Of a DNA stretch of 35,473 bases, positions 4,236-25,107 are shown piece after piece (the first letter of the stretch is position 1; every line of letters begins with the position of its first letter). The position numbers and the translations under genes are program-made. The notes beneath the pieces were generated by a model, which ran no database searches, had not been told where the DNA came from, and was given only the letters and a program-made list of their open reading frames with translations. Source of the DNA: Thermotogota bacterium (GTDB taxonomy: Bacteria > Thermotogota > Thermotogae > Petrotogales > Petrotogaceae); the NCBI GenBank assembly GCA_051748045.1, contig JBNJGY010000018.1, forward strand, positions 1-35,473, read 5' to 3'.

Positions 4236-4272
4236 AAAAAATAGAAGACCTTAAGAGGTCTTCTATTTTTTA
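4236..4272. terminator. Bidirectional intrinsic terminator
   Basis: AAAATAGAAGACCT-TAAG-AGGTCTTCTATTTT between convergent genes. Confidence 0.9.
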
Positions 4273-6657: not shown

Positions 6658-6788
6658 TCTTATAACTCCTTGCATATTCTTTAATATTATATCATATATA
6701 ATACATTGCTGTATATCTTATTGTTTTTTATTACAATTTAATGTAAAATATAAATATAAGTTAAAAAATGAATTTGGGAGGGATAAAA

Positions 6789-7901
6789 ATGGAGTTCAAA
6801 ATAGAAAAGAAAAAATTGATGACATCTGTAGAATTAGCCTCTAATGCTGTAGCAAAAAAAACCACTAACCCAATTTTGTCTGGTATTTTATTAGAAATCA
6901 AAGAAAATGAATTAAACATATTTGCAACTGATTTACAAACAGGTTTTCATAAAAAAGAAGAAATTAATTATTCTGGAGAAGATTTTTCATTTGTAGTAGA
7001 CCAAAAAGTATTTTCAGATATAATTAGAACTTTACCTGATGGCCCAGTGAATATTATTTTTGACGGAAATTTACAATTGGTATCTGGACATTCAAATTTT
7101 AAAATCCCCACAATGGACTCTGGAGAATTTCCAAATGTAATTCCTTCTGTAACCGGCAACTCAATAGAATTAAACAGAGAGAAAATATTAAAAATGATAG
7201 AAAAAGTTATATTTTGTGCTTTAAAAGACAATGACCCCCTATCAAAAAATCTTAATGGACTATATTGGGATTTCAGAGAAGGTGGATATTTAACTTTAAT
7301 CGCATCAGATAGCTATAGGCTTGCTCTTTCAGAAACAACGATAGGAAACGAAGATCTCCCTTCATCATTCTTGCTTTCTTTGAAAAGTATGGAAGAACTT
7401 AAAATGGTTTTGGCAAACTCTAAAACTGAGAAAATAAATCTGAATTTTGATGGATCTAGAGCTTTATTCACTTTCGCTGAAGAAAATATACAATTAGTAC
7501 TTAATGTTGTAGATGCAAAATATCCAAATTATACAGAAATTATTCCACAAGCATTCAAAACTAAAATTGTTTCAAATTCAAAAGATTTCTTAGATTCTTT
7601 AAAAAGAGTTTCAATAGCCGCAGGTAAAAGTGAACAAGTAAAATTAGAAATTGAAGAAACCAGTATTACTTTAAAAGCTAATTCACCAGATGTTGGAGAA
7701 GCAAAAGAATTAATAGATATAGAAAAAGATGGAGAAGAACTTGTTATTGCATATTCTCCAAGATTTTTAAGAGAAGCTGTTGAAAAAGTAGAAACAACTG
7801 AATTCGAATTCAATATCTCTGGTGAAATTAACCCAACAGTAATTAAACCTATTGATGATAATTCATACATGTATATTGTTATGCCTACAAGGTGGGCTTG
7901 A
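6789..7901 (+). CDS. dnaN: DNA polymerase III beta sliding clamp
   Basis: PILSGILL, ATDL, ASDSYRLA, YPNY, C-terminal IVMP; RBS GGGAGG before ATG 6789. Confidence 0.95.
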   Translation: MEFKIEKKKLMTSVELASNAVAKKTTNPILSGILLEIKENELNIFATDLQTGFHKKEEINYSGEDFSFVVDQKVFSDIIRTLPDGPVNIIFDGNLQLVSGHSNFKIPTMDSGEFPNVIPSVTGNSIELNREKILKMIEKVIFCALKDNDPLSKNLNGLYWDFREGGYLTLIASDSYRLALSETTIGNEDLPSSFLLSLKSMEELKMVLANSKTEKINLNFDGSRALFTFAEENIQLVLNVVDAKYPNYTEIIPQAFKTKIVSNSKDFLDSLKRVSIAAGKSEQVKLEIEETSITLKANSPDVGEAKELIDIEKDGEELVIAYSPRFLREAVEKVETTEFEFNISGEINPTVIKPIDDNSYMYIVMPTRWA

Positions 7902-13355: not shown

Positions 13356-13440
13356 TCTTATTATATATATAAATATTTCAATGGTTTTATTGTTCATTTA
13401 ATAAATAATTAATAAATATATTATATAATTGTTTTGTATA

Positions 13441-13461
13441 GTTTTGAAATCGTTTCAAAAC
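13441..13461 (+). promoter_or_regulatory. Palindromic operator (LacI/cre-like) downstream of TATAAT
   Basis: GTTTTGAAA-TCG-TTTCAAAAC; TATAAT at 13423-13428. Confidence 0.65.
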
Positions 13462-13488
13462 ACAAAATATGAAAGGAGATGTTTTATA

Positions 13489-13932
13489 ATGAAAAAAGTT
13501 TTAGTCATAGCTGTTCTGGTTATAGGTTTAATGACTTTTTCAATGAATTATTCTTCAGGGAAAATTGGTCTTGGCTTAACAGGCGGTGAACCATCTGGTA
13601 TATACGGAAGATATAATCTAGAGAATTATAAATTTATAGATGTTACTGCAGCTTGGTCTTTTTCTTCTGATTCTATTTCCTTAGCTACAGATTATAATTT
13701 AATTAGAAACCTAGATGGTGACATTTATTACAGATATGGATTAGGTGCAAAAATTGGATTAGCAAACACAATATCTGTTACTGCAAGAGCTCCTTTAGGT
13801 ATAGAGTATGATTTAACAAACCTAACAGAAATTCCAATCAACTTATTTTTAGAAATAGCTCCAGGATTAGATATTTTGCCTAGTATAAATTTTGATCTAT
13901 CAGGCGGTGCTGGATTTGTTTATTTCTTTTAA
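13489..13932 (+). CDS. Small outer-membrane beta-barrel protein (DUF3996-like), paralog 1
   Basis: Signal peptide; GLGLTGGEPSG, RAPLGIEY, FLEIAPGL, C-terminal YFF; AAGGAG RBS. Confidence 0.75.
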   Translation: MKKVLVIAVLVIGLMTFSMNYSSGKIGLGLTGGEPSGIYGRYNLENYKFIDVTAAWSFSSDSISLATDYNLIRNLDGDIYYRYGLGAKIGLANTISVTARAPLGIEYDLTNLTEIPINLFLEIAPGLDILPSINFDLSGGAGFVYFF

Positions 13933-14089: not shown

Positions 14090-14536
14090 ATGAAAAAGAT
14101 TTTTATTATTGTTATTCTTGTTGTTGGCTTATTGACCTTTTCTATGAATTATTCTGCTGGCGAGAAAGGAGCTGGAGTAATTGGTGGAGAACCTTCTGGG
14201 GTTTATGGAAGGTACAACATAGGTGATTTTCAATTTCTCGATGCAACTGTAGCATGGTCTTATTCGTACAGTTCAATAGCTGTTACTGCAAATTATAACC
14301 TAGCAAAACATTTAGATGGAGATTTTTATTATCGCTATGGTATTGGAGCAACAGTAGGACTTGGTAACACGATTAGTGTAGCTGCAAGAATACCCGTTGG
14401 AATTGAATTTGATTTAGAAAATATACTCGAACTACCTTTAATCATTTTTGCGGATATTGCACCTGGCCTTGAGATCATTCCTAATATGGCTCAATTACAC
14501 ATCTATGGTGGAGCAGGCTTCGTTTACTTTTTTTAA
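14090..14536 (+). CDS. Small outer-membrane beta-barrel protein (DUF3996-like), paralog 2
   Basis: Colinear with paralog 1 (TFSMNYS, GGEPSG.YGRYN, YYRYG, GGAGFVYFF). Confidence 0.75.
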   Translation: MKKIFIIVILVVGLLTFSMNYSAGEKGAGVIGGEPSGVYGRYNIGDFQFLDATVAWSYSYSSIAVTANYNLAKHLDGDFYYRYGIGATVGLGNTISVAARIPVGIEFDLENILELPLIIFADIAPGLEIIPNMAQLHIYGGAGFVYFF

Positions 14537-14687: not shown

Positions 14688-15905
14688 ATGTTTTACAAAA
14701 AAATAGATGATGATTTTTCTTTAATTTTAAACAAAATAGAAAATAACAAGATAAGATCTTATTTAAAACAAGGGATCAAAAAAAATTGGTTTATTTTTTA
14801 TAATAACAACATGAATCATGAAACTATTAACAATATATCTTTTATTCAATCATTTCTAAAAAATCAAGAAATGATCTTACCTGTTTTTGAAAAAAAGATA
14901 AAAGAAATGAATTTGAAAAATTATGATGAAGAAATTTCTGCAAAAGATTTTTTCTATCTTTCGCTTTTTTTAAGCATATTATTATTATTTTCTGGCCAAT
15001 TCTATAAAAATTTGTATTTTAATGGAGAATTTGAGAATAATGAAAAAATTCTTTTTGTAGATAATTTTTTGAATATTAAAAAACACATTTTAGGTATTTC
15101 TACCATTAATTTTTTGAGAACAGGAAGAATTTTTGATCCTTTAATGGAAAATAGAAACAATGAATGGTTAATTAAATTCTGGGAATTATTTTCTTCTCAA
15201 GAAAAATATAAAACTTATAAAATGAATATTTTAGATTATTTATTTAGAGATTTTTTCTTTTGTTGTGAATCAAAGTCTGTATCAATATTTAAAGAAAATT
15301 CATTATCAAATAAAACAATAGAATATGATTATAAAAAGATAATTAATCTGGTTCATAAAATAATTAATTTTAATTTATTTTTATGTAGATATGATGAACT
15401 AAATAACGAAAGTATAATTTCGCTACAAAAGAGTTTTAGATACAATTTAATGACATATATATATAAATATCTTAAAAATTATGAAAACTCTATTTTCTAT
15501 GGCTCTTTAAACGAAGCTTATAAATCTTTGCAGTTTTTTGATAAATATGACTTATATGAAAAAATTTATTTATTCAATGATTTAAAAAAACTATCAGACA
15601 AATTATTGAATTATAATTTATCACACATTAAAGACATGTATGAAAGTAAAAATCATAGAATCCTTTATGATCAAAAAGTTGAACTTTTAGATTCTATAGG
15701 ATATTATGCTTCAAAAATGTTTGAAACACATCAAAAAAGTATTTTAACTTCATACTCTATAACTAGTGTTGAATTTAAAGAAAATATATTATATGTTTCA
15801 ACACACTTTACTTTTTCAAGAAAAAATGAACAAATATATGAGAAGATGATAGAAGATTCTATTATAAAACTTAAAAATTTTGGAATCATACTAAACCAGA
15901 GCTAA
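14688..15905 (+). CDS. Hypothetical protein, possibly degenerate HD-domain phosphohydrolase
   Basis: 405-codon ORF in very AT-rich DNA; GGGGG RBS; LDYLFRD motif. Confidence 0.6.
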   Translation: MFYKKIDDDFSLILNKIENNKIRSYLKQGIKKNWFIFYNNNMNHETINNISFIQSFLKNQEMILPVFEKKIKEMNLKNYDEEISAKDFFYLSLFLSILLLFSGQFYKNLYFNGEFENNEKILFVDNFLNIKKHILGISTINFLRTGRIFDPLMENRNNEWLIKFWELFSSQEKYKTYKMNILDYLFRDFFFCCESKSVSIFKENSLSNKTIEYDYKKIINLVHKIINFNLFLCRYDELNNESIISLQKSFRYNLMTYIYKYLKNYENSIFYGSLNEAYKSLQFFDKYDLYEKIYLFNDLKKLSDKLLNYNLSHIKDMYESKNHRILYDQKVELLDSIGYYASKMFETHQKSILTSYSITSVEFKENILYVSTHFTFSRKNEQIYEKMIEDSIIKLKNFGIILNQS

Positions 15906-15922
15906 TTATTAGTTCTGGTTTT
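15893..15922 (+). terminator. Probable intrinsic terminator overlapping stop codon
   Basis: AAACCAGAGCTAA-TTA-TTAGTTCTGGTTT. Confidence 0.7.
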
Positions 15923-16077
15923 AATTTATCGTTAAATAATATGTAATAGCTATTCCACTATTATTATTTGAGAAGAATATAACTTATTAACCATTTTGTT
16001 ATTTTTTGTTTATTTTTATTTAATAATCTATGTATAGAATAATAACTGTATAACGATTTGGTTAACTTGTTGTCAGG

Positions 16078-16234
16078 TTGTGAAATTTGTTATTTGAAAA
16101 TTTAGTTACTTTGTGAATTTTGTGATTAAATCATTAATTTTTTTATATTTATATTTTACGTTTACCAAGTCATTATATATTTGAAAATTATAATTCATAT
16201 TTTATATTGTGAAATAATTCTTATAAAATCACAA
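16078..16234 (+). promoter_or_regulatory. Cluster of TTGTGAW half-sites (Rex-like) upstream of tusA
   Basis: TTGTGAA at 16078, 16111, 16207; TTGTGAT at 16120; ATCACAA at 16228. Confidence 0.5.
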
Positions 16235-16255
16235 AACCTTATGGAGGTGTTTTTC

Positions 16256-16495
16256 ATGGCTAAATATGAAGTTACAAAAACATTGGATGTTATGGGAGAA
16301 GTTTGTCCAGTACCAGACGTTGACACAAAAAGAGCTCTTAAAAAAATGAACTCTGGAGAAATCTTGGAAGTATTGATTGACTACCCTATGTCTAAAGAAA
16401 GAATACCTGAAACAGTAGAAAAAATGGGACACGAAGTTTTAGAAGTAGAAGAAGTAGGAAACTCAGAATGGAAAATATACATCAAGGTTAAATAA
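16256..16495 (+). CDS. tusA: TusA/YeeD-family sulfurtransferase
   Basis: LDVMGEVCPVP motif; GGAGGTG RBS before ATG 16256. Confidence 0.92.
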   Translation: MAKYEVTKTLDVMGEVCPVPDVDTKRALKKMNSGEILEVLIDYPMSKERIPETVEKMGHEVLEVEEVGNSEWKIYIKVK

Positions 16496-16524
16496 AATAA
16501 TCTAAAATTACGGGGGTAATTGTT

Positions 16525-17517
16525 ATGGCTTGGACAGGATTATTAATGGGATTGATTTTTGGTGTTTTATTACAAAGAGGAAGAGTTTGTTTTAACTCTG
16601 CTTTCAGAGACATCAAATTAATGAAAGATAACTATTTGTTCAAAATTGCTGTTTTTTCTGTAGCTTTGTCTACAATTTTATTTCACTTATCTGCTCAATT
16701 TGGATGGATAAGAATGAATCCAGCTGCATTTAACTGGGTTTCAACCATACTAGGTGCTTTCATATTCGGTATGGGTATGGTTCTAGCTGGAGGTTGTGCT
16801 TCTGGAGTTACTTATAGAATTGGGGAAGGTATGACAACAGCTTGGATGGCTGCGATATCATACGGTTTAACTGCTTTTGCAACTAAAAAAGGTGCTTTAA
16901 ATTGGGTAATAAGTGGTTTAAAACCTTTAGATGTAACTGTGCAAAACGAAAGTGCTATGTATGCAGATACAACAGGCGTTAATATAGCTTCTATATTAGG
17001 AGTAAATCCTTGGATTCCAGCTATAATATTCACTGCTTTATTATTATGGTATGTTTTTGGAACAAAAACAACGCAAAGAAAATCAACTATGAATTGGAAA
17101 ACTTTGGCTATTCTTTTGGCTATAGTATCAACAGTTGCTTATATTCTTTCTTATGCAGCGGGTAGAAACTACGGATTCGGAATAACAGGACCATGGGTAG
17201 CACTATGGGATAGCTTCTTAACAGGCGCTCCTTTAAATTGGGGTTCATTCTCAATCATTGGTATAGTAGTTGGTGCGACAATAGCTGCAATAGTAAAGAA
17301 AGAATTCAAATTAAGAATGCCTAAAAAACCTTCAACATATGCAATGGTTCTTTTAGGTGGAGCTATGATGGGATTTGGAGCTTCAATAGACTATGGTTGT
17401 AATATTGGACATTTCTTTGTTGGATTACCAATGCTTGGTATTTCATCACTAGTAGCTTCTTTATTCTTTATTTTAGGTAACTGGGCAATGACATGGTTCT
17501 TATATGAAAGAGACTGA
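16525..17517 (+). CDS. YeeE/YedE-family sulfur-compound (thiosulfate) transporter
   Basis: Three conserved Cys motifs GRVCFN, AGGCASG, GCNIGH; polytopic. Confidence 0.92.
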   Translation: MAWTGLLMGLIFGVLLQRGRVCFNSAFRDIKLMKDNYLFKIAVFSVALSTILFHLSAQFGWIRMNPAAFNWVSTILGAFIFGMGMVLAGGCASGVTYRIGEGMTTAWMAAISYGLTAFATKKGALNWVISGLKPLDVTVQNESAMYADTTGVNIASILGVNPWIPAIIFTALLLWYVFGTKTTQRKSTMNWKTLAILLAIVSTVAYILSYAAGRNYGFGITGPWVALWDSFLTGAPLNWGSFSIIGIVVGATIAAIVKKEFKLRMPKKPSTYAMVLLGGAMMGFGASIDYGCNIGHFFVGLPMLGISSLVASLFFILGNWAMTWFLYERD

Positions 17518-17534
17518 TCGGGAGGTTTTTCCTT

Positions 17535-17891
17535 ATGAAAATAACTATTCAAGTAATGGCTCAACCATATACTTATCAGGATCTTGATTCTGCGATTAAA
17601 ATTGCAGATGCTGCCTTAGAAAAAGGGCATGAAGTTGGAATTTTCTTATTCTGTGATTCAGTTTTAGCTATTAATAAATTGGTTAAACCTGTAAGAAACG
17701 ATAGAAATATTCCTCAAATACTTGAAACAATGATCGCTGAAAAAGGTTTGAAGGTTGACATATGTGGTATTTGTATGGACTACAGAGGTGTAAACAAAGA
17801 TATGATTATTGAAGGTGCAAGACCAAGTGGACTACCTGAACTCGCAGAATTAATATATGAGTCAGATAGATTCATTAGCTTTATGGCGTGA
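17535..17891 (+). CDS. DsrE/TusD-like sulfur relay protein
   Basis: GHEVGIFLFCDSV, ICGICMDYRG, GLPELAELI. Confidence 0.88.
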   Translation: MKITIQVMAQPYTYQDLDSAIKIADAALEKGHEVGIFLFCDSVLAINKLVKPVRNDRNIPQILETMIAEKGLKVDICGICMDYRGVNKDMIIEGARPSGLPELAELIYESDRFISFMA

Positions 17892-17901
17892 GGTGAATTT
17901 T

Positions 17902-18258
17902 ATGGATAAAAAAGTTCTATTCGTTGTTTACCAGGCACCTGTAGGAGCTATTTGGACTAATGAAGTCTACAGAACTGCTTTTGGTATGTACGGAGAAGAT
18001 ATAGAACCTGCTGTACTTGTTATGGATGAAGCTTCAATTGGTTTATCTGAAAATACAAAACCTGAATCATTGAAACTTCTACCAATAAAAATTGTTCAGA
18101 GGTTCATAAAAAAATATGAAACAGAAGTTTTTGGTGTTCAAGAACATTTAGAAAAATTTAATGTGAAAAACATAGATGAAAAGTTTGGAATGAAAACTCT
18201 GAAAGAAGAGGATCTTTCTGATTTCTTTCATTCATATGATCTAGTAATTTATATGTGA
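17902..18258 (+). CDS. DsrF/TusC-like protein
   Basis: VLFVVYQAPVG..EVYRTA; lies between DsrE and DsrH; GAGGTGA RBS. Confidence 0.8.
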   Translation: MDKKVLFVVYQAPVGAIWTNEVYRTAFGMYGEDIEPAVLVMDEASIGLSENTKPESLKLLPIKIVQRFIKKYETEVFGVQEHLEKFNVKNIDEKFGMKTLKEEDLSDFFHSYDLVIYM

Positions 18259-18268
18259 GGTGTTGTGT

Positions 18269-18538
18269 ATGGCACTCGTATTAGTAAAATATGGTTTGGG
18301 TAACTCAGCTGAAAAGATAAAACTACAAACAGCAAAAGATTCAGACAGTATAGTTTTAATTCAAGATGGAGTTTTCTGGGCTTTAAATGATGAGTTAAAA
18401 GATTTTCAAGGTAATATAAATGTTGTTAAAGAAGATTACTTAGCAAGAGGTTATTCAGAAAAAGATTGCAAACACACTCTATTAGATTATTCAGAATTAA
18501 TTGATTTAATAGAAAAAGAAGAAAAATTTATTGGATAA
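18269..18538 (+). CDS. DsrH/TusB-like protein
   Basis: VLIQDGVFWA, EDYLARG, DYSELIDLI. Confidence 0.88.
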   Translation: MALVLVKYGLGNSAEKIKLQTAKDSDSIVLIQDGVFWALNDELKDFQGNINVVKEDYLARGYSEKDCKHTLLDYSELIDLIEKEEKFIG

Positions 18539-18545
18539 TAAATTT

Positions 18546-18574
18546 GGGGAAGAGCTCAGCTCTTTCCCTTTTTC
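18546..18574 (+). terminator. Intrinsic terminator ending tusA-yeeE-dsrEFH
   Basis: GGGGAAGAGC-TCA-GCTCTTTCCC followed by T run. Confidence 0.85.
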
Positions 18575-18596
18575 CATAGTAAAATTCAATAGTTTT

Positions 18597-18624
18597 TGTT
18601 ATAATAAGAGTGTTATTGTTATAA
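18597..18624 (+). promoter_or_regulatory. Extended -10 promoter with overlapping imperfect inverted repeat
   Basis: TGTTATAAT 18597-18605; TTATAATAA-N8-TTGTTATAA. Confidence 0.55.
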
Positions 18625-18648
18625 ACTAAAAAACCGGAGGAAAAAATA

Positions 18649-19242
18649 GTGAAAATTTTTGATGGGAAAGCTCAATCAATCAACTTACCATTGATTTTTA
18701 AAACTTTATCTAATCAAACGAGACTCGAAATATTAATATCTTTACAAGATAATTGTTCAACTGCTGGAGATATCTCCAAAAGATTGGACATGGATATTTC
18801 TACCGTTTATAGACATTTAAAATTTTTAAAAAATAAAAGCTTAATAACTTCTTTCATGCAAAAGGGTATTGAAAGATATGATTTAGCTTCCGAACACGTT
18901 TATAACCTTATAGAGTCAGCAATTAATACTCTTTCTTCAATAAAACAAACAAAAGCTGTTGAGGCAGAAGTGTTGAAAATATTCTCTGATGATATCCACT
19001 ACATCAGTGATATTACAGTAAATAAAGTGCTGGATGTAAGAGGAGAAATGTGTCCAGTTCCAGATATACAAACAAGAAAACAATTGGAATTAATGGAAAT
19101 AAATGAAGTTCTTTTGGTGATTATAGACTATCCGTTATCCAAAGAAAGAATCCCAAAAGTAATAGAAGATGAAGGACACGAAATGCTAGCTCTTTACGAA
19201 GATAAATTAGGAGACACTAAAATTTACATCAGGAGGAGATAA
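18649..19242 (+). CDS. ArsR-family wHTH regulator fused to C-terminal TusA domain
   Basis: N-terminal FKTLSNQTRLEIL..STVYRHLKFL; C-terminal LDVRGEMCPVP..IDYPLSKERIP. Confidence 0.9.
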   Translation: MKIFDGKAQSINLPLIFKTLSNQTRLEILISLQDNCSTAGDISKRLDMDISTVYRHLKFLKNKSLITSFMQKGIERYDLASEHVYNLIESAINTLSSIKQTKAVEAEVLKIFSDDIHYISDITVNKVLDVRGEMCPVPDIQTRKQLELMEINEVLLVIIDYPLSKERIPKVIEDEGHEMLALYEDKLGDTKIYIRRR

Positions 19243-19244
19243 TA

Positions 19245-20600
19245 TTGTATAATACAGTTGTAATAGGCGGTGGACCTGGTGGTTATGTTGCTGCTATTAG
19301 ATTGGCTCAATTAGGTAAAAAAGTAGCTGTAATTGAAAAAGATAACGTTGGTGGAACTTGTACAAATTGGGGTTGTATCCCAACAAAAGCAATGTTGACT
19401 GCCGCTCATTTATATACAGATATCATTACTAAATCAAAAAAGATGGGAATAAAAGTAGACAGCGTAGATTACGACATAGCTGGAATCATGAAACACATGA
19501 AAAAATCAATAACCATGTCAAGAAAAGGTATCGAATTTTTGTTTAACAAAAATAAAATCGATTTGTTCAAAGAAACTGCAGTTATTGTTGACAAAAACCA
19601 TGTAAAAGCAGGAGAAGATACTCTTGAGACTGAAAACATAATATTAGCACATGGTTCTGAACCAGTTATGTTCTCCCCATTTAATGAAATAGACGGTATA
19701 TGGACAAGTAACGAAGTTTTCCAAATGAAAGAAGCTCCTGAATCAATTCTTATCATTGGTGGTGGAGTAATTGGACTTGAATTTTCTAACTTCTTCGCAA
19801 GTTTAGGTAAAAAAGTTTATTTAGTTGAATTGTTTGACCACATCCTTCCTTATGAAGATGAAGATGTTGCAAAAGAAATTAAAAAAACACTAAAGAAAAA
19901 AGGTGTAGAAGTTCTTGAGAAACATAAAGTTTCTGATGTTCAAATTTCTGAAAAAGGATATATATCAAAAATTGAAAATGATGATAAAATAAAGGAAATA
20001 GAAACAGAAAAAGTTCTTCTCGCAGTTGGAAGAAAACCAGTAATTCCTGAAGACGTTAAAAATTTAGGTGTTGAAATAGAAAAAGGTGTTAAAACAGATT
20101 CCAAAATGAAAACAAATATAGATAATGTTTACGCTATAGGAGATATCAGATCCCAAATTATGCTTGCCCATGTTGCAAGTTTTGAAGGTATAACAGCTGC
20201 GCACAATATCGCTGGCGAAGAAAAAGAAATGGATTATTCAGCTGTTCCATCCATTATTTTTTCGACACCCGAAGTAGCTTCGACTGGAGTTAAAGAAAAA
20301 GATGTTGACACAGATAAAGTTATTATCTCTAAATTTCCAGTTTCTGCAAATGGTAGAGCCAGAACAATGGAAGAAAAAGACGGATTTGCAAAAGTTATTG
20401 CAGATAAAGAATCTGGAAAAGTCCTTGGATTTTCTATAGTATCACCTAGTGCGACAGATATGATTATGGAAGGTGTTTTAGCTGTTAAGCATGGTTTAAC
20501 AATAGAGCAACTCGCTGATTCAATTCATCCTCACCCAACTCTAACAGAAACATTGTTAGGCGCTATTGAAGGTGCAGAAGGAATGGCAATACATATTTAA
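19245..20600 (+). CDS. lpdA: Dihydrolipoamide dehydrogenase
   Basis: GGGPGGY, GGTCTNWGCIP, GGGVIGLE, LAHVA, HPHPTLTE; AGGAGG RBS within preceding gene. Confidence 0.95.
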   Translation: MYNTVVIGGGPGGYVAAIRLAQLGKKVAVIEKDNVGGTCTNWGCIPTKAMLTAAHLYTDIITKSKKMGIKVDSVDYDIAGIMKHMKKSITMSRKGIEFLFNKNKIDLFKETAVIVDKNHVKAGEDTLETENIILAHGSEPVMFSPFNEIDGIWTSNEVFQMKEAPESILIIGGGVIGLEFSNFFASLGKKVYLVELFDHILPYEDEDVAKEIKKTLKKKGVEVLEKHKVSDVQISEKGYISKIENDDKIKEIETEKVLLAVGRKPVIPEDVKNLGVEIEKGVKTDSKMKTNIDNVYAIGDIRSQIMLAHVASFEGITAAHNIAGEEKEMDYSAVPSIIFSTPEVASTGVKEKDVDTDKVIISKFPVSANGRARTMEEKDGFAKVIADKESGKVLGFSIVSPSATDMIMEGVLAVKHGLTIEQLADSIHPHPTLTETLLGAIEGAEGMAIHI

Positions 20601-20623
20601 TTTATATATCGGGAGGTAATAAA

Positions 20624-20968
20624 ATGAAAAAGTACGCTGAATCTCATGAATACGTAATTAAAGAAGGAAACATTGGTATTATAGGAATCTCAGCTAACGC
20701 AGCTGATGAACTAGGAGATATCACTTACGTTGATCTTCCTGAAGAAGGAAAAGAAGTAAAAAAAGGTGACGCAATTTGTTCAGTAGAATCAGTTAAATCA
20801 GCTGGCGATGTATACGCTCCAGTAAGCGGAAAAATCGTAGAAGTTAACTCAGCTTTAGAAGATGCTCCTGAAACAATAAACGATGACGCAGAAGGCGAAG
20901 GTTGGATCTGTAAAATCGAAATGTCAGATGAATCAGAATTAGAAGATTTAAACGACGATGATGAATAA
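20624..20968 (+). CDS. gcvH: Glycine cleavage H-type lipoyl carrier protein
   Basis: SHEY, LGDITYVDLP, VESVKSA (lipoyl Lys), PETIN, EGWI. Confidence 0.93.
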   Translation: MKKYAESHEYVIKEGNIGIIGISANAADELGDITYVDLPEEGKEVKKGDAICSVESVKSAGDVYAPVSGKIVEVNSALEDAPETINDDAEGEGWICKIEMSDESELEDLNDDDE

Positions 20969-20973
20969 TTATT

Positions 20974-21005
20974 AAGCTCGGATATTAATCCGAGCTTTTA
21001 TTTTT
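20974..21005. terminator. Bidirectional intrinsic terminator
   Basis: AAGCTCGGAT-ATTA-ATCCGAGCTT between convergent genes. Confidence 0.88.
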
Positions 21006-21360
21006 CTAAAATATGCTCCATACCCATATTAAATATTTGATTTATATGTTCATCGTCCAAAGAATAGAAAACTGTTTTTCCTTCTTTTCTGTATTTCACC
21101 AAATTAGCTCCTCTTAAAACCCTCAACTGATGAGAAACTGCTGATTGTGTCATACCTAAAGCTTCTGAAATATCACATACGCATAGTTCTGAATGAAAAA
21201 GAACATTCAGTATTTTAATTCTAGTAGTATCTCCAAAAATCTTAAAAAAATCAGCTAATTCATATAAAATCTCATCTTTCGGTATTTTCCCTTTTATCTC
21301 TTTAAGTTTATCTTCATGTATTACCGTTTTTTTACAAACTTCTATTTTATCTTTTTTCAT
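20998..21360 (-). CDS. ArsR/SmtB metal-sensing repressor (CadC/SmtB-like)
   Basis: FKIFGDTTRIKIL, ELCVCD, SAVSHQLR, LDDEH..MEH; GAGGAG RBS before ATG 21360. Confidence 0.92.
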   Translation of the reverse strand: MKKDKIEVCKKTVIHEDKLKEIKGKIPKDEILYELADFFKIFGDTTRIKILNVLFHSELCVCDISEALGMTQSAVSHQLRVLRGANLVKYRKEGKTVFYSLDDEHINQIFNMGMEHILEK

Positions 21361-21382
21361 AATTTCACTCCTCAAAAAATAA

Positions 21383-22216
21383 TTAATATAAAAAATCAAC
21401 AAGCATTTTCTTTATTTCGTTATTTTTTTCGTAATACAACAAATGTCCTCCTGGTAATTTTTTATATATTTTATTCAAAAATTTTTCTCCAAAATAGTGG
21501 TTGGGTCCTATTGAATAATCTTTATCTCCAACTAATAAAAGAACTGGAATTTCAATTTCTGAGGATAAATAATAATGATCTTTCATATATTCATCATCTC
21601 TAAAAACATATCTCAGAAAATTTTGTCCTTTTCCAATCTTCAAATGCTTGTCTACACTATTTAACTTATTATAATCCTCTCTTGAACAACCTAAAAGTTC
21701 ATGATGTTTTTCTTTAGAGGATAATATGGAAATAGTTTTAAAAAGCTTATTTACTAGATCATCTTCTTGTTCAAAAATTTCTTTATAACTAACATCTAAA
21801 ATTTCCAAAGATTTTTTCACTTGTACATTCAAAGACCTTCTAATACTGAAGCTACTATTTAAAAAAATAGCTTTATTAACATTTTCTGGATATTTATATA
21901 AATAATTAATTAGAAGAATTCCACCAAAAGAATGGGCTATAATATTCAAGTCTTCAATAACCAAATACTCTCTAAGTTCCTCAATATCTTTGACCACTCT
22001 ATCTAAAGAATAATTATTATCCGCTGGAAAGTCTGACCTACCACAACCTCTTTGGTCTAAATAAATCATTCTAAAAGAATCTTCAAAGTTTTTTCCTCCT
22101 AGTTCTTCAAAACTTCTGCTCCAAGCACCAGGACCTCCGTGTAAAAACAAAAGAGGTTTGCCTCTTCCAGATATTTTATACCATAAATCTACATTATCAC
22201 TTGTTGTAAAAATCAT
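21383..22216 (-). CDS. Alpha/beta hydrolase, proline-iminopeptidase-like
   Basis: LHGGPG, DQRGCGRS, AHSFGG, GGH; AGGAG RBS favours ATG 22216. Confidence 0.88.
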   Translation of the reverse strand: MIFTTSDNVDLWYKISGRGKPLLFLHGGPGAWSRSFEELGGKNFEDSFRMIYLDQRGCGRSDFPADNNYSLDRVVKDIEELREYLVIEDLNIIAHSFGGILLINYLYKYPENVNKAIFLNSSFSIRRSLNVQVKKSLEILDVSYKEIFEQEDDLVNKLFKTISILSSKEKHHELLGCSREDYNKLNSVDKHLKIGKGQNFLRYVFRDDEYMKDHYYLSSEIEIPVLLLVGDKDYSIGPNHYFGEKFLNKIYKKLPGGHLLYYEKNNEIKKMLVDFLY

Positions 22217-22581: not shown

Positions 22582-23157
22582 TCAATAGGGATTTTTTGGT
22601 ATATCTTTAACCCTCCAATATATTCCAGGAGTTCTATCTAACAATTTTTCTTCTACCATATATCTTCTCAAAGCCGCTACATCATCATTGTATTTCACCA
22701 AAATGGCGTTTACTTCATCTTCTGTGTACTTTTTATCGAAATCAAAATCTTTTACCAATTCTTTTAAAATAATGTATCTTTTTTTGTTGGACATGGGAAT
22801 TTGTTTGAGCTTTCCGTATTCAAAAAATGCTTTAAAAACTTTATTCTTATATTCTTCCATTCTTTGCTTTTGCGCTGCTTCATCTGGGTTCTTTATATAG
22901 ATAATATCTTTAAGGTTTTGATTCAATATTTCGTCTTTAACGTTATACACAATATAATACTGGCTTCTCTCAGAATAAATAATTCCAGCTTTTTCTAATT
23001 TTTTTAAATGAAAAGATACTGTTGATTCAGCGAGATCAAGCAAATTGGATATTTCTTCAACATACATTGGTTTTTTCATAAGGGCATTTATAATCAATAT
23101 CCTTGATTTATCAGCGAAAGCTTTTAATAAATTTAATTTTTTTTGAACTTCATTCAT
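22582..23157 (-). CDS. ArsR-type wHTH regulator with C-terminal DUF2087 domain
   Basis: KAFADKSRILI..STVSFHLKKL; GKLKQIP..KKR..YTEDEVN..LRRYMVE..LLDR. Confidence 0.88.
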   Translation of the reverse strand: MNEVQKKLNLLKAFADKSRILIINALMKKPMYVEEISNLLDLAESTVSFHLKKLEKAGIIYSERSQYYIVYNVKDEILNQNLKDIIYIKNPDEAAQKQRMEEYKNKVFKAFFEYGKLKQIPMSNKKRYIILKELVKDFDFDKKYTEDEVNAILVKYNDDVAALRRYMVEEKLLDRTPGIYWRVKDIPKNPY

Positions 23158-24191: not shown

Positions 24192-24222
24192 ATAATACCA
24201 AAAAAATCAAGGGTGGTGTAGA
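24192..24222 (-). promoter_or_regulatory. MerR-type promoter/operator (19-bp spacer)
   Basis: TCTACA, 19 bp, TATTAT with TGn; dyad ACCA-N13-TGGT. Confidence 0.55.
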
Positions 24223-24971
24223 AGTGTAGGGTTTGATTTAATATTATTAATTATTTTAAAAACTTTTGATACAGATTCAATTGCTTTTTCCAAATTCAAA
24301 ACCCAATTATCTCCTGTTATAATAAGTATTTTCTCCTCTGTATCATCTTTCAGTTCATCAGAAATTTTTCCTTTCAAACCATTTTCATAGGCCTGCATAC
24401 TCCTAAAAATAGATGATATTGTAAATTTTGATTTTCTCAACATGTATATTATCTTCAACCTTTCTATTTCTTTCTCAGTAAAATATCTTTCATTGTTTTT
24501 TCCTTTTCTGGGTATTTCTAATAACTTGTTTCTCTCCCAATTTCTTATTGATTCTTTTGAAACCCCTATTAAAATACTTGTTTCTTCATAAGAATATGTT
24601 TTTGTATTATCCTCTTTTTTTTCATCATTACTCCATAAATCTAAAATTTCAACAGTATTTTTTGCTTTTCTTAATTCTTTTTTCAATGAAGCCTGATGGA
24701 TTTTAACGTTTTTAATAGCAGAATCTATATCCCAATCAACCATAGAAAATATAATGTTATTAGCTGTTTTTCTGAGCTCCTTTCCAAACCATCCATCTTT
24801 ATATAATAATTTTATAATTTTTATTTGAAAATAATGTTTTTCAGTAAAAATTCTATAGTTATTCTTTTCTCTCTTCACTGGAGAAATGAATTTGATCTTC
24901 TCATAAAATCTAACTGTGTTTGCGTGTATATTTAATTTTTTAGCAAGCTCTGATGTTTGATAAGTTTTCAT
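24207..24971 (-). CDS. MerR-family regulator with two MerR HTH domains
   Basis: HANTVRFYE..NNYRIF and SKESIRNWER..NNERYF; GAGGG RBS before ATG 24971. Confidence 0.9.
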   Translation of the reverse strand: MKTYQTSELAKKLNIHANTVRFYEKIKFISPVKREKNNYRIFTEKHYFQIKIIKLLYKDGWFGKELRKTANNIIFSMVDWDIDSAIKNVKIHQASLKKELRKAKNTVEILDLWSNDEKKEDNTKTYSYEETSILIGVSKESIRNWERNKLLEIPRKGKNNERYFTEKEIERLKIIYMLRKSKFTISSIFRSMQAYENGLKGKISDELKDDTEEKILIITGDNWVLNLEKAIESVSKVFKIINNIKSNPTLLHHP

Positions 24972-25107
24972 AATTAATACCCTCACTATTAATAGTCTTA
25001 TTTTTATTAAATTATATAATATTTCAATATCATATGACAAAAGAAACAAAAAAAATAAATGTATTTTATGTATAATTTAAAGGGATTACAAATAAGGGGG
25101 GGATTTT

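Follow-up and report, generated by a model that had tools for sequence, protein, structure and literature searches.

Genes for dihydrolipoyl dehydrogenase (lpdA) and the lipoyl carrier H protein (gcvH) were found in or beside a tusA-yeeE-dsrEFH sulfur relay cluster in 28 of the 49 Thermotogota genomes that have a cluster-type YeeE. Such recurrent pairing in many heat-loving fermenting bacteria hints that the lipoyl pair also helps to turn imported sulfur into sulfide. In the genome analysed here, lpdA and gcvH are certainly housekeeping parts of glycine cleavage that serve gcvT-gcvPAB, and not a dedicated module; their dual use, as an NADH-LpdA-lipoyl-GcvH reductant for TusA- or DsrE-bound sulfur, is plausible from the sequences, with the chances evenly balanced.

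The sequence-only reading had described eight co-oriented genes at this locus, and all eight ORFs were found in the window (the whole stretch of 35 473 nt that was analysed) at the positions and with the domains it had named. Its treatment of the eight as a single unit did not hold: a terminator-like hairpin (18546-18568) and, downstream of it, an extended -10 box split dsrH from arsR-tusA, and the genes therefore form two transcription units, tusA-yeeE-dsrEFH (unit 1), which has its own conserved operator and its own terminator, and arsR-tusA/lpdA/gcvH (unit 2), which has its own promoter and terminator. The features are, in order:

16181-16208, plus strand: promoter-like site upstream of tusA (from sequence)
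16208-16233, plus strand: TGTGA-N16-TCACA palindrome, an operator within the promoter region of tusA (from sequence)
16256-16495, plus strand: tusA, sulfur carrier of the YeeD/TsuB kind, Cys17 in a CPVP motif (PF01206, 88 bits)
16525-17517, plus strand: yeeE/tsuA, thiosulfate or sulfane-sulfur membrane channel (NF052577, 524 bits, cut-off 400; PF04143, full-profile match, 273 bits)
17535-17891, plus strand: dsrE, TusD-like (PF02635, 84.6 bits)
17902-18258, plus strand: dsrF/tusC-like subunit (AlphaFold2 pLDDT 89; Foldseek best match 2hy5_B)
18260-18538, plus strand: dsrH/tusB-like subunit (PF04077, 45 bits; TIGR03011, 51.9 bits, cut-off 49.2)
18546-18575, plus strand: intrinsic-terminator-like hairpin with T-run at the end of unit 1 (10-bp stem, then TTTTT)
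18597-18605, plus strand: extended -10 box TGTTATAAT, promoter of unit 2 (from sequence reading)
18649-19242, plus strand: arsR-tusA fusion, winged-helix DNA-binding domain (HTH_5, residues 22-67) and TusA sulfur-carrier domain (residues 126-196)
19245-20600, plus strand: lpdA, dihydrolipoyl dehydrogenase (TIGR01350, 523.5 bits, cut-off 408.8; CTNWGC and HPHPTLTE visible)
20624-20968, plus strand: gcvH, lipoyl carrier (H protein), lipoyl-Lys58 (TIGR00527, 135.8 bits, cut-off 115.85)
20974-20997, no strand assigned: bidirectional terminator-like hairpin ending unit 2 and a convergent arsR gene (from sequence)

As had been noted earlier, lpdA begins 2 nt past the stop of arsR-tusA, with its ribosome-binding site inside that gene, and a terminator (the hairpin after gcvH) closes the lpdA-gcvH end; the start codon is TTG, the stop TAA, and AGGAGG lies within the last codons of arsR-tusA. 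Hairpins were also read, from upstream regions, at the equivalent place 3' of dsrH in four relatives (L045, L047, L049 and L050). Of 32 loci from across the phylum, 29 have an operator half-site (TGTGA[AT] or [AT]TCACA) no more than 160 nt ahead of tusA; the corresponding counts for the other genes are 3/30 (yeeE), 2/32 (dsrE), 6/40 (lpdA) and 8/37 (gcvH). The genome holds only three other operator sites with N16-17 spacing, one of which (contig C9) falls where a gene for an endonuclease III-like protein ends.

The TusA protein is 66-92% identical to the product of the first cluster gene in other loci where that gene is intact, and Cys77 and Cys80 of DsrE are invariant in 31 of 31 homologues. 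No Pfam match was obtained for the DsrF-like protein and its match to the TusC profile is weak (E 0.003); when its AlphaFold2 model was compared with the PDB, the best Foldseek match was 2hy5_B (E 1.1e-7, TM 0.76; entry 'Crystal structure of DsrEFH'), with 2d1p_B (entry 'heterohexameric TusBCD proteins') also among the best. We take chain B of 2hy5 to be DsrF, the subunit identity of both chains being our assumption. DsrH matches PDB 1rhx/1x9a (TM0979; E 6e-27), and the ATG at 18269 is probably its real start, as judged from the homologue alignment, whose consensus begins at MAL. Lys58 of GcvH is invariant in a 33-row alignment, and the lipoyl-lysine is kept in all 39 rows of a second comparison.

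All 29 homologues compared keep the CPxP cysteine in the TusA domain of the fusion protein, whereas just 14 of them have the one in the HTH domain; the TusA domain matches TM0983, and the nearest solved relatives of the ArsR part are HlyU-type proteins, which presumably are not metal sensors. Only about eight near-full-length arsR-tusA clusters were found among 1.84 billion representatives. Across the phylum the gene goes with the sulfur cluster, including where lpdA is absent, and its product is a candidate sulfur-sensing regulator of that cluster. In this it resembles the ArsR-type sulfane-sulfur sensors SqrR, BigR, sHdrR and SoxR, which reportedly (PMC12423496 and PMC10451225) likewise have an ArsR/SmtB winged helix and adjoin sulfur genes; unlike theirs, sensing here would depend on the single invariant cysteine of a fused TusA domain.

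Absence of gcvP and gcvT from the window had been reported and was confirmed: gcvT-gcvPA-gcvPB lie on another contig (C65), without an H gene, and nowhere else in the genome (completeness 99.65%). The lpdA gene of unit 2 is the sole TIGR01350 match above cut-off and its gcvH the single PF01597 match. Sister genome G001 has lost tusA-dsrH and arsR-tusA and keeps lpdA-gcvH, with the stretch 18561-18615 retained directly upstream of lpdA. Because these are the only L and H genes, gcvT-gcvPAB stands elsewhere without H, and G001 keeps the pair without the sulfur genes, lpdA and gcvH were assigned to glycine cleavage, an outcome that the earlier reading had itself named as one that would speak against it. 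Both proteins are indeed like the usual L and H proteins in scoring above equivalog cut-offs and in having the lipoyl-lysine and the redox-active CxxxxC; they differ in being encoded apart from gcvT/gcvP, behind a regulator with a sulfur-carrier domain and beside a sulfur relay. GcvH is likely the only lipoyl protein of this genome, in which one LplA-like ligase was found and no LipA above cut-off. Profile searches of the whole genome turned up neither a 2-oxoacid dehydrogenase E2 nor a NIR_SIR sulfite reductase, and likewise no CCG/HdrB domain; for DsrC/TusE, nothing scored above cut-off.

The synteny survey showed the proposed linkage to be strongly conserved, with several gene orders and unrelated LpdA lineages, although related genomes are non-independent samples and the counts overstate the support. 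The 28 linked genomes span six of the seven families having the cluster; of the remainder of the 49, 15 are unlinked and 6 have the cluster at contig ends. At least five architectures occur: (i) dsrH-fusion-lpdA-gcvH, (ii) dsrH-fusion-lpdA, (iii) fusion-gcvH, (iv) dsrH-lpdA-gcvH with a convergent fusion gene and (v) dsrH-gcvH-lpdA, where dsrH and gcvH are 20 nt apart or overlap. Metagenomes gave 80 loci that have a relative of DsrF: in 41, lpdA and/or gcvH is adjacent; in 18 neither is, although the sequence runs on for 1.5 kb or more past the cluster; and 21 are not assessable, leaving 59 that are. Adjacent metagenome LpdAs may be only 36-41% identical to that of the window yet score 500-554 bits on TIGR01350; the nearest named relatives of one are from Thermoanaerobacter and Thermoanaerobacterium (73-82% identity), and by sequence some of these loci carry a Bacillota-type LpdA, of a lineage unrelated to the window's. 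In the LpdA tree, cluster-linked and unlinked proteins are mixed and form no specialised clade.

Thirteen genomes have two gcvH genes, and in ten of these one copy is in or beside the cluster (loci examined: G006, G020, G022, G072, G073, G124, G125, G128, G134, G136 and G145; in G124 the cluster-side gcvH adjoins the fusion gene at a contig start). The other copy adjoins gcvT/gcvP in eight of the ten (G020, G022, G072, G073, G134, G136, G145 and kin) and stands alone in the f9 genomes and G006. In the f7 and f10 genomes the second gcvH follows dsrH directly and another lies beside gcvP or gcvT; their cluster copies sit on long branches of a GcvH tree whose backbone is without resolution, and one f10-type relative from a metagenome falls below the GcvH cut-offs. 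Matches to gcvT/gcvP were found only around the other gcvH copies, with none in cluster loci, including 0 of the 80 metagenome loci.

The hosts are fermenters. We propose a scheme in which the sulfur-transfer and electron-transfer steps and the regulator-operator pairing are inferred, beside the observed gene identities, copy numbers, synteny, and operator and terminator conservation. Unit 1 is the yeeE/tusA/dsrEFH ('YTD') cluster for sulfur import and relay in its Thermotogota version: YeeE would admit thiosulfate or polysulfide, Cys17 of TusA would accept the sulfur as persulfide or thiosulfonate, and Cys77/Cys80 of DsrE would receive it next. LpdA and GcvH, besides their part in glycine cleavage, would most likely supply the acceptor and reductant that the relay lacks, the dihydrolipoyl-Lys58 of GcvH attacking the TusA or DsrE persulfide to give H2S and NADH re-reducing the lipoyl disulfide via LpdA. 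ArsR-TusA would sense sulfur loading by its CPxP cysteine and control unit 1 via the TGTGA-N16-TCACA operator. The literature search found no paper describing this NADH-LpdA-lipoyl-GcvH reduction of relay-bound sulfur. Of the lipoate-mediated, NADH-driven sulfur reduction system put forward in the sequence-only reading, the conserved linkage stands and the dedicated system does not. The idea of an electron sink from thiosulfate is weakened, because the thiosulfate couple (-402 mV) lies below NADH (-320 mV; from extracts of bioRxiv 10.1101/322537) and lipoamide (-290 mV; from extracts of PMC6067878) and the genome has no sulfite reductase in profile searches; on these published values, cleaving thiosulfate with NADH or dihydrolipoamide would cost energy under standard conditions. 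Reduction of sulfane sulfur is still feasible.

In favour of dual use, the cluster has gained the redox pair and no other part of glycine cleavage, L and H forming an NADH:dithiol couple that GcvT and GcvP never join; the canonical acceptors sought in the window genome (DsrC/TusE, sulfite reductase, CCG/Hdr, E2) were not found; and the linkage extends to genomes and metagenomes, with extra cluster gcvH copies. The thiol requirement of YeeD, the thiosulfate response of the T. maritima cluster and the closeness of lpdA to nsr in a g45 genome, all given below, count on this side too. Against it are the single-copy housekeeping status of the pair and its retention in G001, the cluster without lpdA/gcvH in 15/49 genomes and 18/59 assessable metagenome loci (among them g45 genomes, one of which bears the nsr primer site published for T. 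maritima), the terminator of unit 1, the lack of half-site enrichment upstream of lpdA, the energetics of thiosulfate cleavage, and the trees. The copy numbers, the lack of an H gene at gcvT-gcvPAB, G001, the terminator of unit 1 and the 15 unlinked genomes also speak for the view that lpdA-gcvH is glycine-cleavage L/H only, placed here because the gene order was inherited or, at the most, because a regulator is shared, the lipoyl arm taking no part in sulfur chemistry; the cluster LpdA is an ordinary phylum ortholog and unit 2 has its separate promoter. We consider this rather unlikely, as it leaves unexplained why the linkage persists through the rearranged architectures, why a lipoyl-lysine-bearing second gcvH follows dsrH in f7 and f10, why unrelated Bacillota-type LpdAs occupy the same place and why gcvT/gcvP never join.

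It is improbable that LpdA alone acts, as an NADH:persulfide/polysulfide reductase on TusA/DsrE-bound or free sulfane sulfur with GcvH as passenger: lpdA alone does join the cluster in the g15 genomes, G109, G112, G130, G137 and G149, but in the g3 genomes and in L136 and L155, two high-GC metagenome loci, it is gcvH alone that does so, there are dedicated gcvH paralogs that keep the lipoyl-lysine, and LpdA has not diverged from ordinary L proteins. Related pyridine-nucleotide disulfide oxidoreductases such as NSR are described in parts of PMC9431562 as reducing S0, polysulfide and thiosulfate; NSR-like proteins of the window genome are only 28-31% identical. A relay that feeds sulfur to the lipoyl cofactor, for synthesis or repair on GcvH, would suit a genome with GcvH as its only likely lipoyl protein, one ligase and no LipA above cut-off; yet no lipoyl synthase or ligase gene was seen among the 30 window ORFs covered by the Pfam scan (43 ORFs of at least 100 aa were listed) or among genes identified in the cluster loci, which were screened with the window's proteins only, and LpdA is not called for, so that we hold this to be very improbable. 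Slighter still are the chances of an oxidative direction, in which the lipoyl arm would receive electrons from the oxidation of sulfane sulfur and LpdA would use them to form NADH: the hosts ferment, and the genome shows no CCG/Hdr-like protein or sulfite-forming or -oxidising enzyme in the searches made, though such a direction has been published as the model for sHdr-LbpA (PMC6067878).

The proposed dual use is close to that sHdr-LbpA system (Cao et al. 2018, PMC6067878), in extracts of which a GcvH-like lipoyl protein is tied genetically to TusA, DsrE-type transferases and a YeeE-type importer, as here, dihydrolipoyl dehydrogenase is the proposed connection between the lipoyl arm and NAD(H), and archaeal clusters have linked lpdA; by comparison, the window genome has no Hdr-like complex and no dedicated lipoate ligase or LipS genes nearby, its host is a fermenter, the proposed direction is reductive and the lipoyl protein is an ordinary sole GcvH above cut-off. 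YeeE/YeeD (TsuA/TsuB) thiosulfate uptake shares the full-length YeeE above the TsuA cut-off and a TusA-like partner with the catalytic cysteine, DsrEFH, the fusion, LpdA and GcvH being added here; parts of PMC11073785 describe an assimilatory role for the systems of E. coli and Spirochaeta, state the downstream acceptor to be unknown and report that YeeD-catalysed H2S release from thiosulfate required a thiol reductant in vitro. The YTD cluster (yeeE-tusA-dsrEFH type II; extracts of PMC13293266) has the same content, a yeeE-like gene, tusA, dsrE and two small proteins left nameless by annotation, and occurs with DsrAB/DsrC in Desulfobacterota and Nitrospirota, whereas DsrC/DsrAB were not found here; in the main-text extracts, lipoyl genes and Thermotogota are not mentioned. 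The yeeE/dsrE/tusA cluster of Thermotoga maritima is an ortholog by the DsrH and TusA-domain matches, and parts of PMC9431562 report it up 42.6-fold with thiosulfate and attribute the documented thiosulfate reduction to NSR. In the g45 genomes, lpdA lies outside the cluster and adjoins nsr, in one case about 400 nt downstream of this characterised sulfur reductase gene. Dihydrolipoate reportedly acts with rhodanese/MST as a dithiol, freeing H2S from enzyme-bound sulfane sulfur (work ascribed to Villarejo and Westley in 1963 and Mikami in 2011); there free dihydrolipoate meets rhodanese-fold enzymes, whereas here a protein-bound lipoyl-GcvH would meet TusA/DsrEFH.

The sulfur genes of the window and the lpdA and gcvH genes that follow them are laid out as listed here.

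16208–16233: palindrome TGTGA-N16-TCACA, upstream of tusA
16256–18538 (+): unit 1, tusA-yeeE-dsrEFH
18546–18568: hairpin with a 10-bp GC-rich stem and a T-run, between dsrH and arsR-tusA
18597–18605: perfect extended -10 box TGTTATAAT, 3' of that hairpin
18649–20968 (+): unit 2, arsR-tusA/lpdA/gcvH

All eight co-oriented ORFs of the sequence-only reading were found with the domains it had claimed (ORF listing and Pfam/NCBIfam profiles; the fourth by structure). YeeE is full-length, since it aligns over positions 1–310 of the 310 of PF04143 (Sulf_transp), and it scores 524.1 bits on the curated TsuA profile NF052577 (cut-off 400); 29 nt separate it from the end of tusA, whose product has a CPVP motif with the catalytic Cys17. 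YeeE is predicted to be a thiosulfate transporter, solely on homology and on induction data from T. maritima, where the orthologous yeeE/dsrE/tusA unit is reported to rise 42.6-fold with thiosulfate (PMC9431562). DsrE (PF02635, 84.6 bits) has the active-site cysteine, with C77 and C80 invariant in 31 of 31 homologues, and is adjoined by genes for a DsrF/TusC-fold and a DsrH/TusB subunit, as expected of DsrEFH/TusBCD. DsrH passes the cut-off of TIGR03011 (51.9 against 49.2 bits). The DsrF-like product of the fourth gene had no match in Pfam, nor by phmmer among PDB sequences, and hhalign comparisons with DsrE and DsrH alignments were non-significant; its fold was therefore settled by structure prediction. 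The AlphaFold2 model (pLDDT 89) best matched 2hy5 chain B (E 1e-7, TM 0.76), from a solved structure of DsrEFH, followed by chain B of the TusBCD entry 2d1p.

The genes of the block stood as claimed; their description as a single unit did not, since the hairpin and the extended -10 box between dsrH and arsR-tusA divide the block into two transcription units. Hairpins were also found at the matching place after dsrH when the printed upstream regions of related genomes were read. Other details held: lpdA starts 2 nt past the arsR-tusA stop codon with its Shine-Dalgarno sequence within arsR-tusA, and a hairpin of the kind claimed as a terminator lies 3' of gcvH. RNA-library contigs identical to the window cover the genes from tusA to dsrH in full and lpdA in part, with no coverage of gcvH or the arsR-tusA ORF; being contigs, they say nothing of expression levels, and libraries of this kind may contain carried-over DNA. 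One of them (18327–18639) extends across the unit 1 terminator, which hints at read-through weakly at best.

Of 32 loci, 29 have a half-site of the palindrome (TGTGA[AT]/[AT]TCACA) in the 160 nt 5' of tusA; the corresponding counts are 3 of 30 for yeeE, 2 of 32 for dsrE, 6 of 40 for lpdA, 8 of 37 for gcvH and 13 of 29 for the gene of the ArsR-TusA fusion. As half-sites are not enriched upstream of lpdA or gcvH, they provide no evidence for co-regulation of the two units through a shared operator. In the window genome (G000) the palindrome is almost unique, and the few other sites examined gave no indication of a wider regulon: they adjoin unrelated genes, namely one for endonuclease III, two genes away from a GGDEF gene, and one for HamA (Hachiman-type defence). 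The latter, next to a HEPN RiboL-PSP gene, has a perfect TGTGA-N6-TCACA palindrome upstream (contig C91:1880, locus L115).

The fusion has an ArsR HTH domain (PF01022, 37.7 bits, residues 22–67). ArsR/SmtB sensors of sulfane sulfur of the SqrR/BigR type have a conserved cysteine pair in this domain. In contrast, the fusion lacks such a pair: its single HTH-domain cysteine is kept in only 14 of 29 homologues, whereas the CPxP cysteine of its TusA domain is invariant (29 of 29). The protein is rare: 1.84 billion representatives yielded about 8 near-full-length clusters, and a search of genome contigs returned one match only, a near-identical MAG; named relatives are from Tepiditoga and Oceanotoga. 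Among 41 genomes of the order, 16 have it at full or nearly full length, and in most lineages it travels with the yeeE/tusA/dsrEFH cluster, also where lpdA is not nearby. The fusion is the obvious candidate for a repressor of unit 1 acting through the palindrome at 16208–16233, a pairing that we infer; together with the conserved operator it would represent a new type of candidate sulfur sensor.

The genome to which the window belongs (2.41 Mb, 99.65% complete, ~28% G+C; the window is contig C18) yielded a single GcvH match and a single LpdA that passes the cut-off, both encoded by the window genes. LpdA scores 523.5 bits on TIGR01350 (cut-off 408.8) and its translation contains CTNWGC and HPHPTLTE, which we take to be the redox-active CxxxxC and the C-terminal His-Glu motif that define the family. 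GcvH scores 135.8 bits on TIGR00527 (cut-off 115.85) and its lipoyl-lysine, K58, is invariant. It is not encoded with its glycine cleavage partners: contig C65 carries gcvT, gcvPA and gcvPB as a group, and the few nt between gcvT and gcvPA leave no space for an H gene. An Rfam search of the window and of the gcvT locus found no RNA family, glycine riboswitches included. One LplA-like ligase (contig C14) and one BirA are encoded in the genome, with no LipA above cut-off. No 2-oxoacid dehydrogenase E2 was found in it either, which makes GcvH the sole likely lipoyl protein and glycine cleavage the sole classical client of LpdA. The same genome yielded no sirohaem sulfite reductase domain or DsrAB, no CCG (HdrB) domain (PF02754) and no DsrC/TusE (best PF04358 match 22.9 bits, below the cut-off of 24.9), so that DsrEFH is without any textbook partner.

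The sister genome G001 (same genus, 99% complete) is collinear with the window on both flanks and lacks the segments corresponding to 15922–18561 (tusA to dsrH) and 18615–19205 (the arsR-tusA ORF). Relay and regulator are thus both lost, and the 55-nt promoter stretch 18561–18615 is retained directly 5' of lpdA-gcvH, whose products are 93% identical to those of the window. It follows that lpdA-gcvH are independent of the sulfur genes. The sequence-only reading had proposed a lipoyl-linked sulfur reduction system; in this genome the two genes are not a dedicated module, being the sole L and H copies and kept in G001 without the cluster, and their being the only housekeeping copies is among the findings which that reading itself had named as counting against it. 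A second YeeE paralog (38% identical) lies elsewhere in the window genome (contig C98:449–1465, locus L120), beside a DUF2834 gene and with no TusA or DsrE adjoining; G001 retains a paralog of this type without the cluster copy.

Linkage was scored from gene coordinates and tblastn maps of fetched loci in 151 Thermotogota genomes, 49 of which have a cluster-type YeeE (G001, whose only YeeE match is the 36%-identical paralog, was left out). The synteny survey that had been suggested as a check found the linkage NEVERTHELESS conserved: lpdA and/or gcvH lie within or right beside the cluster in 28 of the 49 genomes and in 6 of the 7 cluster-bearing families, in at least five architectures. Fifteen genomes are unlinked (G009, four of group g45 and ten of group f8) and in a further 6 the clusters end at contig ends. 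G009 has a fusion-lpdA-gcvH module and tusA-yeeE-dsrEFH on separate contigs.

Architectures of linked clusters in Thermotogota (g and f numbers denote groups of related genomes)
dsrH-fusion-lpdA-gcvH: own genus, g4, g5
dsrH-fusion-lpdA: g15, f11
fusion-gcvH: g3
dsrH-lpdA-gcvH, fusion convergent: g9, f9
dsrH-gcvH-lpdA: f7, f10 (dsrH-gcvH gap 20 nt or overlap)

Three clusters are decaying: one retains truncated tusA and dsrE genes after deletion of yeeE (L058, genome G020), another retains tusA, a remnant of the fusion TusA domain, lpdA and only a remnant of yeeE, with dsrEFH gone (L059, G031), and in the third the lpdA reading frame is split (L092, G089). In a tree of LpdA, cluster-linked and unlinked copies are intermixed and form no specialised clade.

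GcvH, GcvT and LpdA are near-universal in Thermotogota. Two gcvH copies were found in 13 genomes, in 10 of which one copy is in or beside the cluster (loci examined: G006, G020, G022, G072, G073, G124, G125, G128, G134, G136 and G145; the G124 copy is beside the fusion gene, at a contig start). The other copy adjoins gcvT and/or gcvP in 8 of these 10; in G006 and the f9 genomes it is solitary. No cluster locus contains a GcvT or GcvP match, matches of this kind being confined to the loci around the other gcvH copies. What joins the sulfur relay is exactly the NADH:dithiol pair (L and H), not the glycine-specific enzymes. The lipoyl-lysine is kept in all 39 GcvH rows compared, including divergent cluster copies with ExxK variants, and the f7 and f10 cluster copies are on long branches of the GcvH tree (0.83 and 0.73). 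The window GcvH groups with other sole-copy Petrotogaceae proteins; the backbone of the tree is too poorly resolved to choose between its descent from a cluster paralog and from a gcvT-linked copy.

Beyond these genomes, metagenome contigs scanned with an alignment of DsrF yielded 80 loci (G+C 0.29–0.65). In 41 of them lpdA, gcvH or both are adjacent, in 18 neither is although the contig continues for 1.5 kb or more past the cluster, and the remaining 21 are too short to judge; linkage counts include related sequences and are not independent trials. The weight of the linkage argument is in the different architectures and LpdA lineages, not in the counts. GcvT and GcvP had no match in any of the 80 loci. 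Even the adjacent LpdAs that diverge most, 36–41% identical to that of the window, score 500–554 bits on TIGR01350. In locus L196 the nearest named relatives of LpdA are those of Thermoanaerobacter and Thermoanaerobacterium (73–82% identity), which indicates that the pairing also occurs with a Bacillota-type L protein. Two high-GC clusters (L136 and L155; G+C 0.61–0.65, presumably high for Thermotogota) have gcvH directly 3' of dsrH.

Neither DsrAB nor Phs accounts for the reduction of S0 or thiosulfate by many Thermotogota and by Thermoanaerobacter species. Which enzymes are responsible is debated, with NSR, Mbx and SudAB among those proposed (PMC9431562; bioRxiv 10.1101/322537). The CoADR-type NSR of T. 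maritima (TM0379) is reported to use NAD(P)H for the reduction of thiosulfate, polysulfide and S0 (PMC9431562); NSR-like proteins of the window genome are only 28–31% identical. The published nsr primer (PMC9431562) matches exactly in a g45 genome (G138, locus L121), where the gene of this biochemically characterised sulfur reductase (nsr, 4316–5647) is followed ~400 nt downstream on the same strand by lpdA (6052–7401). This places lpdA beside sulfur reduction a second time, in a separate neighbourhood; the adjacency was not seen in two f8 loci checked.

Lipoyl proteins are established in sulfur oxidation by the sHdr-LbpA system, for which dihydrolipoyl dehydrogenase has been proposed as the link to NAD (PMC6067878). 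Unlike that system, the window genome has no Hdr-like complex (no PF02754 match) and no lipoate ligase or LipS gene beside gcvH, the only LplA-like gene being on C14. In gene content (a yeeE-like gene, tusA, dsrE and two small unnamed genes) unit 1 can be likened to the yeeE-tusA-dsrEFH YTD/type II cluster known from Desulfobacterota and Nitrospirota (PMC13293266). However, the latter co-occurs with DsrAB/DsrC, neither of which was found in the window genome, and the main text of that paper has no mention of lipoyl genes or Thermotogota (PMC13293266). A full-text search that covered main texts found no paper in which lipoamide dehydrogenase or GcvH of fermenters is tied to yeeE-dsrEFH/YTD clusters.

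The model that we favour for the window genome is dual use, in which LpdA and GcvH run glycine cleavage and would also act as an NADH-driven dithiol for the sulfur relay. Sulfur imported by YeeE would pass to TusA and on to DsrEFH, the dihydrolipoyl arm of a GcvH-type protein would unload the sulfane sulfur of TusA/DsrEFH as H2S, and LpdA would re-reduce the arm with NADH. This step may serve sulfide supply for biosynthesis or as an electron sink. Release of H2S from thiosulfate by YeeD is reported to require a thiol reductant in vitro, and the YeeE/YeeD study states that the cellular acceptors of YeeD sulfur remain to be identified (PMC11073785). Against dual use, lpdA and gcvH are housekeeping genes and survive in G001 without the cluster; a third of clusters are without lpdA or gcvH, and the two units have separate signals. 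Energetics also weigh against it, as, at the standard potentials cited, neither NADH (−320 mV) nor lipoamide (−290 mV) is low enough for the cleavage of thiosulfate (−402 mV) to run downhill (10.1101/322537; PMC6067878). Only the sulfane atom could be reduced, because the genome has no sulfite reductase. A complex prediction of DsrE, DsrF and DsrH with GcvH as partner scored 0.00 and is uninformative either way.

The lipoyl-sulfur link of the sequence-only reading is thus partly supported, by a conserved cross-phylum association and not by a dedicated module in this genome; on that association, a lipoyl-dependent step in sulfur processing is a well-founded and testable hypothesis. That anaerobic thermophilic fermenters (Thermotogota and Thermoanaerobacter-like Bacillota) have an undescribed, widespread cytoplasmic pathway of sulfur reduction from YeeE-TusA-DsrEFH to lipoyl-GcvH/LpdA, in which GcvH may moonlight (window genome) or have spawned LbpA-like paralogs (other lineages), is a serious possibility that we would place somewhat short of an even chance. 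If it exists, lipoyl-GcvH/LpdA would be the physiological acceptor and reductant missing in the YeeE/YeeD field, a glycine cleavage protein would have a second job, sulfur and thiosulfate reduction would have a route independent of Dsr, Phs and Hdr, and the role of lipoate in sulfur metabolism would extend from sHdr-type oxidisers to fermentative sulfur reducers. Through the conserved genetic tie of the import/relay cluster to the NADH-LpdA-lipoyl-GcvH couple, the hypothesis is concrete and open to in vitro testing.

Several flanking genes were also recorded. Convergent with gcvH, and with a bidirectional hairpin in common, is the gene of a second ArsR/SmtB regulator (20998–21402, −), whose product has a metal-site motif of the ELCVCD type; the gene is syntenic in G001 and in genome G002 and therefore part of the flank, not of the sulfur genes. 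Just 5' of the sulfur cluster is a very AT-rich ORF of 405 aa (14688–15905, +), collinear in G001 and with zero Pfam or NCBIfam matches. It is preceded by genes for tandem paralogous small proteins (13429–13932 and 14090–14536, +) with a signal-peptide-like N-terminus and a C-terminal GGAGFVYFF in both, which may be small outer-envelope (toga) proteins. Further upstream, an 801-aa protein of WD40-type beta-propeller repeats is encoded at 4270–6675 (−). On the other side, genes for an ArsR-HTH/DUF2087 protein (22582–23157, −) and a MerR protein that has two HTH domains of the MerR type (24207–25049, −) form, with two nearby ArsR-type genes, a dense patch of small regulators.
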